10,750 nt of DNA from Candidatus Bipolaricaulia bacterium (GTDB taxonomy: Bacteria > Bipolaricaulota > Bipolaricaulia > JBHIAT01), in contig JBHIAT010000129.1 of assembly GCA_046758705.1 (NCBI GenBank), positions 1-10,750 on the forward strand. The letters are read 5' to 3'. Positions 1,398-10,681 of the stretch are shown piece after piece. The translations under genes and the position numbers were made by a program. The notes under the pieces are model-generated. The model had not been told where the DNA came from and did no database searches. It worked only from the letters and a program-made list of their open reading frames with translations. Position 1 is the first letter of the stretch. Every line of letters starts with the position of its first letter.

Positions 1398-1441
1398 TTA
1401 AGTAAGGAAGATCACCTGACGACCAGAGGGAGGTGAGCGAG

Positions 1442-1642
1442 GTGATCACAGTGCATCGACCGGGAAACTGGACCGGACACAAGACAAAGCAGATGGAGGT
1501 TGAGGAGTTGCGACAGACGTTCGATGAGGAGGTGGAGTCTCTATTTCGCAAGGGAGCGACGGGGACCTACGAGCGGGTTGAGGTTGAGGAGGTCCAGGAT
1601 AAAGATGAGGTGATGATCCTCAAGCGATTGCGCGGGGGGTAG
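1442..1642 (+). CDS. Small ubiquitin-like (beta-grasp, MoaD/ThiS/SAMP-like) protein with C-terminal RLRGG
   Basis: GGAGGTG RBS ends 6 nt before GTG 1442 (the ORF track uses GTG 1433, which lies inside the RBS). 66 aa ending VQDKDEVMILKRLRGG-stop, matching the xDxDEVxIx(4)GG tail of beta-grasp proteins. Confidence 0.7.
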   Translation: MITVHRPGNWTGHKTKQMEVEELRQTFDEEVESLFRKGATGTYERVEVEEVQDKDEVMILKRLRGG

Positions 1643-1721: not shown

Positions 1722-2204
1722 ATGAGTGTGGGGCTCCGGGTCTTCTTTTATGGACTCGGTGCTGTGATGATCATCCTCTTTAGCTTTTTGACAGGCATCG
1801 TGTTCAAGATCGCCATCGCCCTGGGTGTGGTGGGTTTGCTGATCTTGATTCGGGTCTTTATGAGGAATCAACGCAGGGCCGAGCGGTTCCTGGAGGCTGT
1901 CCTCGGGGAGAAGCGGTATCGAGAGTACAAGTCCAAAGGGTTTCTCCTGATCAACGGATATGCGATCACGACGGAGGGGGATGTCTTTGGGTTTCGAGGG
2001 AGTCGGATTGAGCCGTTCGGACTGCGCACCGGCTATCTCTATCCCGGCGATAACATCGTCGCGAGGATCATCTACCTGGACAGCGATCCGCAGAGTATAC
2101 GACGCACAGCCTGCGGGGCGGGCCCTTATCCGCCGGCTGAGGTTGTGGATGCGCTATTGCAAGATCGACGGGAAAGGGAGGAAGAGAGGGGAGAAACGGC
2201 CTGA
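1722..2204 (+). CDS. Hypothetical membrane protein: two N-terminal TM helices plus a ~110-aa soluble domain
   Basis: AAGGAGG RBS before ATG 1722. 160 aa; residues ~5-46 are hydrophobic and are followed by basic RNQRR. Single Cys at residue 131 and a charged C-terminal tail. Confidence 0.8.
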   Translation: MSVGLRVFFYGLGAVMIILFSFLTGIVFKIAIALGVVGLLILIRVFMRNQRRAERFLEAVLGEKRYREYKSKGFLLINGYAITTEGDVFGFRGSRIEPFGLRTGYLYPGDNIVARIIYLDSDPQSIRRTACGAGPYPPAEVVDALLQDRREREEERGETA

Positions 2205-3487: not shown

Positions 3488-3853
3488 TTACCTCTCCTCG
3501 TCGACCTCGACCTCAGTTTCAGTTTCAGTTTCGGGCTCGGCCTCGATCTCGATCTCGATCTCGATCTCGGGCTCGGCCTGGGCCTCGATGGTCGCTCGGT
3601 CGACGCGCAGTATCACCCGGTCGCCGACCCTCTCGATCTCGGTTGCCTGGATCTGATATCGCCTGCGCCGAAACCAAGACCCGGTCCGCACCACGATGCC
3701 GGTCACCGTCCCCAGATTCAGGTTGAGGTAAATATCGTCAACCTTGCCGAACTCCTCAACATTGACGTCGAGGACACGCTTGCCGAGCAAATCCTTGACG
3801 CTGATCTGCTTCAGGTTCCCCCGTCTTGCTTCTCGGCCCGGTTCCTCGGTCAT
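3488..3853 (-). CDS. PRC-barrel domain protein with acidic low-complexity tail
   Basis: GAGGAGG RBS. KDLLGKRVLD...FGKVDDIYLN...GTVTGIVV...IERVGDRVIL is the PRC-barrel pattern. Tail EPEIEIEIEIEAEPETETETEVEVDEER. Confidence 0.85.
   Translation of the reverse strand: MTEEPGREARRGNLKQISVKDLLGKRVLDVNVEEFGKVDDIYLNLNLGTVTGIVVRTGSWFRRRRYQIQATEIERVGDRVILRVDRATIEAQAEPEIEIEIEIEAEPETETETEVEVDEER
3497..3589. repeat. Period-6 coding tandem repeat including (TCAGTT)3 and (CTCGAT)4
   Basis: TCAGTT x3 at 3513-3530 and CTCGAT x4 at 3542-3565, inside a degenerate hexamer run encoding Glu-X dipeptides. Confidence 0.85.
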
Positions 3854-5707: not shown

Positions 5708-7387
5708 CTAACGACTGAGGTCGGGTGGGATCAGCTTGCGAATTATTACGCCGCCGAAACTGTCAGCACTCCACAACCCGATGCCGTCCCAGACGAGCCC
5801 CTCGGAGTTCCCCTCCTCCTCGTGGAAGCTAAACGCTTCGACCACCATCCCGTCTTCGGGACGGATCCGATAAACGGCTCTATCATCGTTGTCGGCAAGC
5901 CACAGGAAGTCGCCGTCCCAAGTCAGGCTGTTGGGGCCACTCCCCGGTGCGTCGAACGAATCGAGTACCTCACCGGTATCCGGGTCGAGCTGGTAGATGC
6001 GTCCTTCGCTGCTATCTGCGTTCCACAGATGAGTGCCGTCCCAGGCGAGTCCTTCAGGGAACTGCCCTGGAGCCGGGAACGAGTTGACAATCTCCCCGGT
6101 TTCGGGATCGAGCCGGTAGATGAACTGCTCGGTGAGATCAGCATTCCACAGGTGGGAGCCATCCCAGGTCAGGCCGGTCGGTCCGGGGCCCGGAGTGGCG
6201 AGCGACAGGATGACCTCACCGACGGTCGGATCGATTTTGTACAGGGTGGCGGTGTCAAAATCTGCGTTCCACAGGAACGCGCCGTCCCAGGCGAGTCCGT
6301 CGGGCGCGGTGCCAGGCGCGGTCCATGTCACGTCGATCTCCAGGGCGTTCCGGAGTTCTGTCACCACGGAGATATCAGGTTGCGACACCCCGAGGCTGGT
6401 TTCCAGGTCGACGATGTTGAGCATCTGATCACCACTGTGAGCGCTCCACAGCCGCGTCCCATCCCAGGCGAGGCCCTCAGAAAACCCGGCGGGGATGGCG
6501 AAAGTGTCGACGGCCGACCCATCCGTCGGGTTGATCTGGTAAATGACCCGGTCGTCATTGTCGGTCAACCACAGAAAACCATTAGCCCACTCAAGGCTGT
6601 TGGAGTTGCCCCCCGGTGTGTCGAACGAATCGAGCACCTCGCCGGTATCCGGGTCGAGTCGAAACAGCATTTGTTGGTCGGAATCAGCGTTCCACAGATG
6701 CAATCCGTCCCAAGCGAGCCCTTCGGGGAACTGCCCCGGAGCCGGGAACGAGGTGATGACCTCACCGGTCTCGGGGTCGATCTGGTAGAGGATCGCTTCG
6801 TTGAGATCGGCGCTCCACAGATGGGAACCATCCCAGGCGAGGCCGGTGGGTCCGGAGCCCGGAGCGGCGAGCGAGGTGATGACCTCGCCACTGTGGATGT
6901 CTATCCGATACAGGGTGGCGGTGCTAAAATCGGCGTTCCACAGATGAGTGCCGTCCCAGGCGAGCCCGTCGGGTGCGGGACCCGGCGAGCTGAACGGGCC
7001 GATCTGAACCACCAAGGTGCGGCTGACACGATCGGTGGCACCGGCGTCATCGGTCACCGTCAGCGTCACCGTGTAGTTTCCCGCCCGGCGGTAAGTGTAG
7101 GAGACGGTGCTATCGCTGGTGAAGCTGAAGCCGTCCCCGAAGTCGAATTGGTACCGGGTGATCGTGCCGTCCGGATCTGAGGAGGCGATCGCATCGAACT
7201 GAATCGGTTGACTGAATATCGGTTCCTCCGGCGATATCGACAGCCTGGCCGTCGGCGTTTCAGTCGCCGGGGTCTGTGATCTCAGCGCGAGGGGGCCGCA
7301 GCCGGCTGCGACGATCAGGACACTGATGATGAGCAGCGCGCCGCCGAACTTGCTCTTGGGGAGGGGGGTTTTAGGGAGAACGGGCAT
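5708..7387 (-). CDS. Lipoprotein with a PKD domain and two five-blade beta-propeller modules (glutaminyl-cyclase-like repeats)
   Basis: AAGGAGG RBS before ATG 7387 (559 aa), signal peptide with lipobox AAGC, PKD motif SSDPDGTITRYQFDFGDG...YTYRRAGNYTVTLTVTDDAG, and ten ~40-aa repeats of the form GLAWDGxHLWxAD...YxIDPxTGEV. Confidence 0.85.
   Translation of the reverse strand: MPVLPKTPLPKSKFGGALLIISVLIVAAGCGPLALRSQTPATETPTARLSISPEEPIFSQPIQFDAIASSDPDGTITRYQFDFGDGFSFTSDSTVSYTYRRAGNYTVTLTVTDDAGATDRVSRTLVVQIGPFSSPGPAPDGLAWDGTHLWNADFSTATLYRIDIHSGEVITSLAAPGSGPTGLAWDGSHLWSADLNEAILYQIDPETGEVITSFPAPGQFPEGLAWDGLHLWNADSDQQMLFRLDPDTGEVLDSFDTPGGNSNSLEWANGFLWLTDNDDRVIYQINPTDGSAVDTFAIPAGFSEGLAWDGTRLWSAHSGDQMLNIVDLETSLGVSQPDISVVTELRNALEIDVTWTAPGTAPDGLAWDGAFLWNADFDTATLYKIDPTVGEVILSLATPGPGPTGLTWDGSHLWNADLTEQFIYRLDPETGEIVNSFPAPGQFPEGLAWDGTHLWNADSSEGRIYQLDPDTGEVLDSFDAPGSGPNSLTWDGDFLWLADNDDRAVYRIRPEDGMVVEAFSFHEEEGNSEGLVWDGIGLWSADSFGGVIIRKLIPPDLSR
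5735..6991 (-). repeat. Intragenic tandem duplication of a ~590-bp five-blade module
   Basis: Modules at ~6404-6991 and ~5735-6322 align blade for blade at a 669-nt offset, e.g. CCGTCCCAGGCGAG at 6951 and 6282. SFPAPGQFPEGLAWDG and LDPDTGEVLDSFD each occur twice. Confidence 0.85.
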
Positions 7388-7415
7388 AGTAGCCTCCTTG
7401 ATATGGTTTGAGTCC

Positions 7416-7445
7416 AATATAACCCAAAGCAGAAGCGGGAGGCAA
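7416..7445 (-). promoter_or_regulatory. Putative promoter of the lipoprotein gene
   Basis: TTGCCT (7445-7440), 18 nt, TATATT (7421-7416), upstream of the RBS. Confidence 0.4.
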
Positions 7446-7475
7446 ATGTGACGGCGAGCCGATCGCGATAGTCGA

Positions 7476-9710
7476 TCAAGCGGTTTCGAACACGAACGCC
7501 CCATCCCGAACGTCCACGGAGACGGTGTCGCCTTCGTCGAACCGGCCCTCGATGATCTCCAGCGACAGGGGGTTCTCGATCTGCTTTTGGATCACCCGTT
7601 GCAGCGGACGGGCACCGTAGGTCGGGTCGTACCCCTTCTCGACGAGCAGCTCCTTCGCCTCGGGGGACACCACCAGCGTGATCTCTCGCTCGGCGAGCCG
7701 GCGGCTCAGCTCATCGAGTTTAAGCTCGACGATCTGTTTCAGATCTTCCGTGTTGAGCTGCTTAAAGATGATGATCTCATCCAGTCGGTTGAGGAACTCG
7801 GGTCGGAATTGCCCTCTGAGCGCCTCGATGATCTCATCCTGAACCTTGTGTGCATCGATCCCTTCGGTCGTGAACAGCTCGCTGCCGACGTTCGAAGTCA
7901 TGATGATGATCGTGTTCTTGAAGTCGACGGTCCGGCCCTGGCCGTCGGTGAGCCGGCCCTCGTCGAGCAGCTGGAGCAGCACGTTGAAGACGTCGTGGTG
8001 AGCCTTCTCGATCTCGTCGAACAGGATCACCTGGTACGGTCTTCTGCGGATCGCCTCGGTGAGCTGGCCGCCCTCTTCGTAGCCGACATAGCCCGGCGGA
8101 GAACCGATGAGGCGAGAAACCGAGAACCGTTCCATGTACTCGGACATGTCGATGCGCAGCAGCGCGTCCTCATCGTTGAACAGGAGCTCGGCGAGCGCCT
8201 TGCTGAGTTCGGTCTTGCCGACCCCGGTGGGGCCGAGGAACATGAACGTGCCGATCGGCTTCTTCGGGTCCTTGAGCCCGGCTCGCGACCGGCGGATCGC
8301 CTCGGCGACGGCGCGTACACCCTCCTCCTGATCGATCATCCGTCGGTGGAGCAGATCCTCGATCCGGGCGAGCTTGTCCCGCTCCTCCTCGAACATCCGT
8401 TCGACCGGGATGCCCGTCGCCAACGACACGACCTCGGCGATATCCTCCGCCCCGACCTCATGTCGCTCCTGGCTCTCGTCGAACGAGGCATCGACCCGGA
8501 TCTTGGCGGCTGCTTCATCGATCAGGTCGATCGCCTTGTCAGGCAGGAACCGGTCTGAGATGTAGCGATGGGAGAGTTTGGCCGACGCCTCGATGGCGGC
8601 GTCGCTGATCTTGAGCCGGTGATGATCTTCGAAGCGCTCCCGCAACCCATTCAGGATCTCGACCGTCTCCTCGACCGACGGTTCCTGGATCAGCACCCTC
8701 TGGAACCGCCGTTCGAGCGCCGAGTCCTTCTCGATATGCTCCCGGTATTCATCCAGGGTGGTGGCCCCGATCATCCGTAGGGTGCCGCGAGCCAGCGACG
8801 GCTTGAGTAGATTGGAGGCGTCGATCGCCCCCTCAGCGGCGCCGGCGCCGACCACCGTGTGCAGTTCGTCGATGAACGTGATGAACTTCCCGTCGCTGGC
8901 CTCGATCTCCTTGATGACCCCGGTGAGCCGCTCCTCGAACTCACCACGAAACTTGGAACCGGCGACCATCGCGCCGACGTCGAGCGTGATAAGCTCCTTC
9001 CCATTGAGGATCTCGGGTACGTTTCCGTCGACGATCCGCTGGGCCAAGCCCTCGACGATCGCCGTCTTCCCGACGCCAGGTTCGCCGATGAGCACCGGGT
9101 TGTTCTTTTTGCGCCGGGCAAGGATCTGAGCCACCCGGCGGATCTCCCGCTCGCGGCCGATGACCGGGTCGAGCTTCCCCTGCCTCGCCAGATCCGTGAG
9201 GTTGACGCTGTAGCGCTTGAGGATCTGGTAACGTTCCTCTGGGGTGCGGTCGGTCACCCGCTGCTCCCCCCGGATCTCGTGAAGGGCAGAGTAGATCGCT
9301 TCAGGAGTGATCCCGTGCCGGTTCAGAATCGTCTTCAGCTCCATGTGGGTATCCTGGCTGATGGCGATCAGCAGATGCTCCGCCCCGATGTACTCGTCCT
9401 TCAGCCGCTTGGCCTCATGCTCGGCGGCCCGGATCATGTGGTCGAGGCGGGGGGTGATGTAGATCTGCTGGCCGGTGGTGCTGGAAACGGTCGGCTTCTC
9501 GCTGAGCAGCGCGTCCAGGTCGGCGAGCAGACGATCGATCTTAACGCCCATCTCCTTCAGGATCTCTTGGCCGACGCCGTCCTCCTGAGCGGCGAAGACA
9601 TAGAAGATGTGCTCGATATCGAGCTGGTTGTGGTGGTATCGCTCCAGGAGCTCTTGGGCATCTTGGAATAATTGCTGGGTCTTCTCGGTGAAGTTCTCAA
9701 ATCGTATCAT
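7476..9710 (-). CDS. Class 1 Clp/Hsp100 AAA+ chaperone (ClpB/ClpC-like), lacking the middle domain
   Basis: Clp N-domain. NBD1 has [33 protein letters not shown] and ALERRFQ. NBD2 has [36 protein letters not shown] and YGARPL. 744 aa with a GGAGG RBS. Confidence 0.95.
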
Positions 9711-9817: not shown

Positions 9818-10681
9818 CTACCGCACCGAATCTTGTGCCGCCTTCAACGTGTTGCGGAGGAGCATGGCGATCGTCATCGGACCGACGCCGCCAGGAACCG
9901 GGGTGATATACCCGGCGACCGGCCGAGCACTCTCGAAATCGACGTCCCCGACCAGTCCTTCCTCCGTCCGATGCACCCCGACGTCGATGACCACCGCGCC
10001 CGGTTTGACCATCTCCCCGGTCACCAGCTTGGGCTGCCCCACCGCGGCCACCAGCAGATCCGCTTCCCGACATCGATCTGCGAGGTTTTGGGTCCGGGAG
10101 TGACACAGGGTCACCGTCGCATGGCGGGCGAGCAGCAGCAAGGCCGTCGGCTTCCCCACGATGATGCTTCTACCTATGACGGTCGCCCGTTTGCCCTGGA
10201 TCTTCACCTTGGTCGAATTGATCAGTTGCAATATGCCGGCGGGTGTGGCGGGCACCGGGCTTGAGATATCCTCGATATCTTTGGCGGCCAACAACCTCCC
10301 CAGGTTGATCGAGTGGAAGCCGTCCACATCCTTGGCGGGGGCGACCGTCTCCAGAATTTCCCCCGGGTTGATATGATCCGGCAGCGGGAGCTGGACCAGG
10401 ATCCCGTGGATCTTCTCATTCTGGTTCAGCTCACGGATCACCTTCACCAGATCCTGCTGGGAGATCTCCTCCGAGAGCAGACGCGTCTCCGAGTAGATTC
10501 CAGCCTCCTCGCACGCCTTCACCTTCATGTTGACATAGAGCTTAGAGGCGGGGTCCTCTCCGGCCAACACGGCGGCGAGCCCCGGAACGATCCCCGTCTC
10601 CGCCTTGAGTTGAGCGGTTTCCTTCCCGACCTCATCCCGGATTTTTTGGGCCAGCTGCTTGCCGTCGATGATCTGTCCCAT
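9818..10681 (-). CDS. folD: Bifunctional methylenetetrahydrofolate dehydrogenase/cyclohydrolase
   Basis: IIDGK, PGLAAVLAGEDPASKLYVNMK, HGILVQLPLP, KDVDGFH, VIGRSIIVGKP and ITPVPGGVGPMTIAMLL. AGGAGG RBS. Confidence 0.98.
   Translation of the reverse strand: MGQIIDGKQLAQKIRDEVGKETAQLKAETGIVPGLAAVLAGEDPASKLYVNMKVKACEEAGIYSETRLLSEEISQQDLVKVIRELNQNEKIHGILVQLPLPDHINPGEILETVAPAKDVDGFHSINLGRLLAAKDIEDISSPVPATPAGILQLINSTKVKIQGKRATVIGRSIIVGKPTALLLLARHATVTLCHSRTQNLADRCREADLLVAAVGQPKLVTGEMVKPGAVVIDVGVHRTEEGLVGDVDFESARPVAGYITPVPGGVGPMTIAMLLRNTLKAAQDSVR

Follow-up and report, generated by a model that had tools for sequence, protein, structure and literature searches.

A small Gly-Gly protein and its downstream partner in Candidatus Bipolaricaulia as a likely divergent branch of an unnamed phage and plasmid two-gene unit

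The two genes and their surroundings

The window, by which we mean the whole 10,750-nucleotide stretch of DNA that was analysed (contig JBHIAT010000129.1 of a Candidatus Bipolaricaulia bacterium), carries a small gene whose product ends in Gly-Gly and, directly downstream of it, a partner gene. Their features are the following.

1442..1642, + strand: 66-aa Gly-Gly protein, probably beta-grasp, no Cys, 5 Lys (from sequence, relatives and an Atlas model)
1429..1436, + strand: Shine-Dalgarno sequence of the small gene, GGAGGTGA (from sequence)
1625..1639, + strand: codons of the RLRGG tail; GG alone (1634-1639) is conserved in three family members
1722..2204, + strand: 160-aa partner with a predicted N-terminal membrane anchor and an unnamed alpha/beta domain (from homology to the invariant-Cys partner of phage and plasmid modules)
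1711..1716, + strand: Shine-Dalgarno sequence of the partner gene, AGGAGG (from sequence)
1734..1859, + strand: hydrophobic stretch of the partner, residues 5-46, then RNQRR (hydropathy scan: one helix, 14-32)
2016..2021, + strand: Phe99-Gly100, the site of the wider family's invariant Cys; no Cys in 3/3 bacterial members
2112..2114, + strand: Cys131, in an Ala-Cys pair common to three members; at the aligned place, where the last helix ends, the family has Ala-Asn

The small ORF is a real gene, as borne out by a strong ribosome site, a paralog, one homolog and third-position-biased change. The start at 1442 was favoured over 1433 because GGAGG ends 8 nt 5' of the GTG at 1442, and the paralog, the homolog and the database record have the same start. 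When the window gene was aligned with its paralog over 65 codons there were 27, 18 and 41 changes at the first, second and third positions, respectively, and a synonymous codon is used at 21 of the 31 residues that are identical between the two proteins. Neither a sigma-70 promoter nor a sense-strand terminator was found in 1200-2400. The partner gene starts 79 nt 3' of the small gene and has its own ribosome site. Its hydrophobic stretch may be long enough for two helices, and the partner of the paralogous pair, on contig C63 of the same genome, has two. No significant family match was found for the small gene or the partner gene in Pfam, NCBIfam, PHROG or PADLOC.

The small gene and a TRAP T-component-like gene (484-1314, - strand) are divergently transcribed. 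Four other ORFs on the - strand of the window were also noted. The ORF at 108-455 (115 aa) is class-V aminotransferase/cysteine-desulfurase-like; its N-terminal piece runs into profile positions 161-223 and then stops, as though a large in-frame deletion had removed part of the gene. The ORF at 7476-9710 encodes a ClpB/ClpC-type AAA+ protein of 744 aa in which the AAA lid match ends at 68 of 104 positions, which suggests a very short middle domain. The ORF at 5708-7504 is lipoprotein-like and has a PKD domain; nearly identical LAWDG repeats occur in it in two runs and are beta-propeller-like. The ORF at 3488-3853 encodes a PRC-barrel protein with a 30-residue acidic tail in which Glu alternates with Ile, Thr or Val.

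Relatives in the phylum and in phages and plasmids

The paralog of the small protein (G000:C63:9850-10047, - strand) is 45-48% identical to it (E 4e-15), and the homolog, which is in a kin genome labelled Ca. Fraserbacteria (G007:C5, L011:7842-8042), is 33% identical. When 184 genomes of the phylum were searched, the small protein had convincing matches only in these two genomes, G000 and G007, with four partial matches (E 6e-4 to 0.04) set aside, and convincing matches to the partner were found only in the same two, plus one partial match (E 0.004). The two-gene unit is rare in the phylum (2/184 genomes). Word-index searches returned either self only or the three known members and one remnant, and HMMER against 1.84 billion representatives returned self, the paralog and one spurious 2,575-aa repeat protein. 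Pattern scans with the window alignments gave no confirmed relative in viral or metagenome contigs and gave only G007 in genome contigs. A tblastn lead in Vibrio phage henriette 12B8 was dropped, as the gene that contains it encodes 296 aa and does not end in GG.

One further protein, P0007 (105 aa), from a relative, consists of the first 55 residues of a G007-type small protein joined to the last ~45 residues of a G007-type partner, and is a deletion-fusion remnant of the two-gene unit. The pair on C63 is flanked by three related unnamed proteins (L010:6609-7865, 10084-10560 and 10591-11937) with a Met/Arg-rich helical repeat (weak DUF3106), two of which have membrane domains, and cupredoxin and heavy-metal genes lie near it.

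At all three loci the gene that follows the small gene encodes the same unnamed domain, in unrelated surroundings, and both genes are intact with good ribosome sites. The partners matched each other at E 1e-5 (window and G007) and E 0.03 (C63 and G007). Membrane helices start the window and C63 partners and are absent from the G007 partner. No E1, E2 or JAB gene lies beside any of the three copies. An E2-like reading of the partner, based on motifs (a Cys, then x-P and a helix), had no database support. The window and family partners had no match to UQ_con or Prok-E2, and the UQ_con search of the genome is uninformative, as none of its controls gave a match. Similarly, a profile of 25 partner sequences gave no E2 at E<=10 and no meaningful match among PDB sequences, and the PDB sequences that did match (PPR repeats, BCL6 and designed trefoils) are chance matches. 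Prediction of a complex of the small protein with its partner scored 0.39 and the control scored 0.42.

The entry point to the wider family was L047, the one real match of the 12 that a degenerate tail-pattern scan of viral contigs produced (the other 11 are off-frame or unrelated). On this 247-kb contig a small GG protein is followed by a gene with the partner domain. One of 4 partner-pattern matches (L196) is a family member, and members are also found in Virus Rctr197k (Rctr197k_113/112), in the 595-kb phage LR756511 and in Bradyrhizobium (WP_247973846/WP_247973912). The set that we compared has 112 loci, namely, Rctr197k, LR756511, three of ten Bradyrhizobium plasmids, 27 IMG/VR loci and, of 411 metagenome loci that were confirmed, the best 80; these were found via one peptide pattern and many are kin, so that the counts are not independent. 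In this set, with its best 80 of 411 metagenome loci, GG ends 86 of the 99 distinct complete small proteins and about 13 end otherwise (PG, AG, PS and others), the partner is present in 63 of the 64 loci whose downstream sequence reaches 1.5 kb or more (97/112 overall), one Cys and one Tyr are invariant in 84/84 distinct near-complete partner domains, and 111/112 loci have no E1 gene. The exception is L076, where a ThiF-family gene lies 0.9 kb behind the partner. A Cys-rich (CxxC-type) gene of ~120 aa without a Pfam family lies near the pair in 41 of the 112 loci (for example, L075:2486-2845), and three of the 84 partners (L096, L102 and L127) are clearly membrane-anchored and keep the family Cys. 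None of the family members that were scanned has a Pfam or NCBIfam family. No description of the pair was found in an abstract-level search of the literature, and the supplements of PMC1779556 and PMC1949818 may list such families.

Some loci of this family have features of their own. At L076 (2974-5684) the small protein has RKG in place of GG at its end, and a Cys-Thr-His-His motif is found in the partner. In Rctr197k the partner domain is encoded a second time (L050:7246-7983), with no accompanying small gene 5' of it, and a mini CRISPR array precedes the pair by 1.3 kb. At L077 (2902-3852) a longer Gly/Ala-rich ORF begins with the small domain, which is joined to the rest by a run of Gly, and the ORF is not followed by a partner gene.

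Because an E1 is missing from 111/112 loci, and because Gly-Gly lies at the junction in the L077 ORF, the partner could be an E1-independent peptidase or transpeptidase whose Cys, acting on fusions or conjugates, cleaves after GG and transfers the small protein to an amine without ATP. However, nearly all of the small proteins already end at GG and therefore have no peptide bond to drive the transfer, L077 is the one partner-less locus among the 64, and no His is conserved beside the partner Cys in the family. We consider this reading improbable.

The window partner itself aligned with the family profile in HHalign at 95.8% (E 7.6e-9), and of the 28,101 ORFs of the genome it was the top match to the family HMM (E 3.3e-5), whereas the C63 partner reached only E 6.8. 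It is therefore almost certain, as far as sequence comparison goes, that the window partner belongs to the phage and plasmid partner family. The Cys of the wider family lies 10-11 residues before a near-invariant Asp, and the three bacterial partners have Phe/Met/Tyr-Gly there. Their shared Ala-Cys aligns with the family's Ala-Asn (Asn in 43/84) at the end of the last helix. Cys131 is the sole Cys of the window partner, and from three sequences it may be proposed that it replaces the family Cys; the C-terminal halves of the C63 and G007 partners failed to align to the family HMM. The small protein behaved differently. The HHalign score of its profile, with three sequences on the window side, against the phage small proteins was 18.5 compared with a mean of 19.6 for tail-fixed shuffles, and the family small-protein HMM did not find it. 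As no homology to the phage proteins is detectable outside the tail, it would either have diverged greatly or be another beta-grasp protein that was combined with the same partner. Taken together, the window pair appears to be a divergent, membrane-anchored bacterial branch of the unnamed Gly-Gly and Cys-partner unit, with the Cys in a new place.

The absence of the family Cys from 3/3 bacterial partners could also mean that the catalytic Cys was simply lost, leaving a non-covalent membrane binding module or a phage-derived relic in which GG is kept for docking or by inertia. The patchy occurrence of the unit, the remnant P0007 and the lack of a linked E1, E2 or JAB would fit such decay, but intact genes with good ribosome sites at three loci, codon change biased to third positions and an Ala-Cys at the same place in three partners would not, and we regard decay as unlikely.

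Tail and fold of the small protein

Ubiquitin ends LVLRLRGG, and the original prediction was built on the identity of its last five residues with those of the small protein. Translation of 1442-1642 gives the C-terminus DKDEVMILKRLRGG with the stop codon immediately after GG, which confirms both the five residues and the claim that GG lies directly at the stop. The likeness goes no further, because residue -6 is Lys and not Leu, and RLR is not conserved: GG is the only common part of the tails KRLRGG (window), RQIQGG (paralog) and EPLAGG (homolog). An acidic body and a basic tail had also been described and are found in the window protein, the net charge being -6 in the body and +3 in the last six residues, but the basic tail is not kept in the relatives, where the last six residues carry +1 (paralog) and -1 (homolog). 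The meaning that had been read into the RLRGG identity is not upheld, since RLR and the basic tail are absent from both relatives and the related phage and plasmid modules have RLxGG more often than any other tail type (24 of 86 GG-ended small proteins). Among these 86 tails R is found at -5 in 29, L at -4 in 37 and R at -3 in 2, the pattern R[LIV]xGG in 29 and xRGG in 2; RLRGG is found in 0 of the 99 distinct family small proteins.

It was considered whether the small protein could nevertheless be a true ubiquitin mimic, with RLRGG selected to engage eukaryote-type E1s or deubiquitinases. Apart from the five identical residues, the LRGG end is unique to the small ORF among the 27,689 closed ORFs of at least 40 aa in the genome, and the chance of RLR given GG is low for any one protein, being ~0.003 when family position frequencies are multiplied and 0.0008 from the genome RLR tripeptide frequency. 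However, the tail was chosen after the fact from a scan that met very many GG-ended proteins, and with R[LIV]xGG and xRGG as frequent as they are in the family one such tail is expected in a large scan. In addition, RLRGG is absent from the paralog and the homolog, the small protein has no Pfam match to ubiquitin (PF00240) or its family, LRLRGG is not conserved in its relatives, and no signal peptide is evident in its sequence. Mimicry is thus extremely improbable. Because the match was picked post hoc among many GG proteins and the paralog has no RLR, the most likely explanation is coincidence on a tail that was already leaning to R-L-x-G-G, and the ubiquitin-tail identity is itself of no importance.

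The fold that had been predicted, strand-strand-helix-strand-strand and a final strand, was only partly recovered by the structure prediction and fold search that had been suggested as a check. The single-sequence AlphaFold (AF2) model, which is weak (pLDDT 56), has a strand at 13-19, a helix at 23-39 and two later strands at 54-56 and 59-65 (69-aa numbering), with residues 1-13 unresolved. Four fold searches with two low-confidence AlphaFold models (pLDDT 56 and 50) gave no beta-grasp or E2 match, a result that says nothing about the fold. The ESM Atlas model is better (pTM 0.67, pLDDT 0.78), and its ten listed structural neighbours include ThiS/SAMP2 (TM 0.69 by query and 0.67 by target), Ubiquitin_2 and RA domains; its beta-grasp neighbours at TM 0.57-0.71 are all below the Atlas bar for naming a family. 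The nearest Atlas feature neighbours are unnamed clusters of 66-70 aa (0.86-0.87), 2/3 of them 94% viral, which is a lead only. We consider it probable that the small protein is beta-grasp.

A profile of the three small proteins aligned with 27 MoaD/ThiS proteins of the kin genomes at 40.8% (HHalign, E 2.8e-4), and the score of 24.3 was higher than that of 40/40 tail-fixed shuffles in which the last 12 columns were kept. The free C-terminal Gly-Gly, present in 3/3 members, is in register with the MoaD/ThiS last-strand tails. The small protein is not, however, an ordinary MoaD/ThiS, in agreement with what had been predicted. It has no Pfam or NCBIfam match at E<=1, including PF02597, and its tail is unlike those of the 27 kin proteins, all of which end [PT]P[IVL][GS]GG. 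The genome's MoaD is elsewhere: a PF02597 search of the genome found the C35 MoaD only, and the MoaD-MoaE pair and the single MoeB are on contigs other than that of the small gene. No MoaE, ThiG, MoeB or other sulfur-pathway linkage was found among the neighbours at the three loci.

The small protein could still be a sulfur carrier like MoaD, ThiS, TtuB or Urm1, with GG thiocarboxylated via MoeB and a persulfide on the partner Cys. Its profile similarity to MoaD/ThiS exceeds that to the phage small proteins, the nearest named Atlas clusters are ThiS-like, and the broken desulfurase-like gene at 108-455 is in the window. These points have to be weighed against the lack of a Pfam ThiS match and of the PP-x-x-GG tail that 26 of the 27 kin MoaD/ThiS proteins have, the MoaD-MoaE and MoeB-TusA-like pairs that the genome already has, the absence of a desulfurase-like gene beside the other two copies, and the absence of a recurring sulfur gene among 793 clustered neighbour ORFs of the family loci (top 22 clusters read). 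A sulfur carrier is therefore distinctly unlikely, and it is the partner gene, and not the tail, that provides the evidence for a modifier over a sulfur carrier.

Proposed working and comparison with known systems

A free Gly-Gly together with a dedicated Cys partner is the signature that is expected of a carrier plus a thioester acceptor, and GG and the downstream partner are found in 3/3 members, whose identity to each other is only 33-48% and whose genomic surroundings are unrelated. A Gly-Gly carrier and a Cys thioester acceptor correspond to E2/HECT thioester-relay chemistry as covered in part of PMC1779556. Based on these findings we propose, tentatively and at somewhat less than an even chance, that the two genes are a minimal tagging pair, in which MoeB is borrowed and the Cys of the partner is loaded with the tail. 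The C-terminal carboxylate of the small protein would be adenylated in trans by the cell's MoeB/ThiF-type E1; such activation is possible because both bacterial hosts have a ThiF/MoeB gene away from the pair. The small protein would then be passed as a thioester to the single Cys131 of the partner and would either stay there or be handed to a membrane-near target, with the RLR residues being incidental.

A role of the small protein in degradation is unlikely because the proteasome operon of the genome has its own tag, UBact (PF20513, E 7e-21), which is unlinked to the small gene. This UBact-proteasome operon is complete (G000:C50:4189-10940; L048:244-423) and encodes an ATPase, a Dop-like protein, UBact ending GE, PrcB, PrcA and a PafA-like protein, the names beyond UBact and the proteasome being assigned by reading the sequences. 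Prok-JAB gave no match over the cut-off genome-wide, and two weak matches are RadC-like by sequence.

The fullest form of the proposal would be a two-gene ubiquitin-like conjugation that large phages and plasmids spread, with an acceptor that is neither E2 nor HECT and with activation by host MoeB. Here it would have been domesticated and membrane-anchored, with a different or fast-evolved beta-grasp protein, and the role of nucleophile would have passed from the Cys in the strand to another where the last helix ends. That all of these parts hold together is doubtful. If true, this pair of a Gly-Gly protein and a Cys partner other than an E2 would be the smallest conjugation system of its kind.

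With eukaryotic ubiquitin the small protein shares the last five residues and probably the fold, but elsewhere the two show no sequence similarity, and the small protein has Lys at -6, a tail that is unconserved in its relatives and no cognate cascade that we could find. It is like MoaD, ThiS, SAMP and Urm1 (PF02597 and relatives) in size, in the register of the last strand (D/E-E-hydrophobic...GG), in its free Gly-Gly and in weak profile and Atlas structural similarity; it differs from them in having no Pfam match, no PP-x-x-GG tail and no cofactor or tRNA-thiolation operon, and in its fixed pairing with an unnamed Cys partner. UBact has GE at its end, and a PafA-type ligase attaches it through the Glu, so that the chemistry of the UBact/Pup-proteasome system differs from that of a Gly-Gly protein, and the genes are unlinked.

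The Bil (BilABCD) and Bub operons and the type II CBASS Cap2 system encode an E1 and an E2, according to the part of PMC11601603 covered here, and in the corresponding part of PMC1779556 (Iyer, Burroughs and Aravind 2006) no such two-gene make-up was found among operon classes 6a-6e; the part of PMC11354881 that was covered has nothing on this two-gene pair. As far as these sources go, all of those systems resemble the window pair in that a bacterial Ubl and a Cys-bearing partner gene are in one operon, but they come with E1 and E2 and mostly a JAB peptidase, whereas the window pair is two genes only and its partner has no detectable similarity to E2, E1 or JAB.

Compared with the phage and plasmid module, the window has no upstream Cys-rich third gene (41/112 family loci), outside the tail no homology of its small protein to the FDPxxEE-type small proteins is detectable, and its branch has lost the fourth-strand invariant Cys and keeps another. 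What the window pair has in common with the module is the gene order, the GG tail and a homologous partner domain encoded directly downstream. This Gly-Gly and Cys-partner unit is tightly conserved over phages, plasmids and bacterial contigs, and the window branch offers a natural test of which Cys is important.
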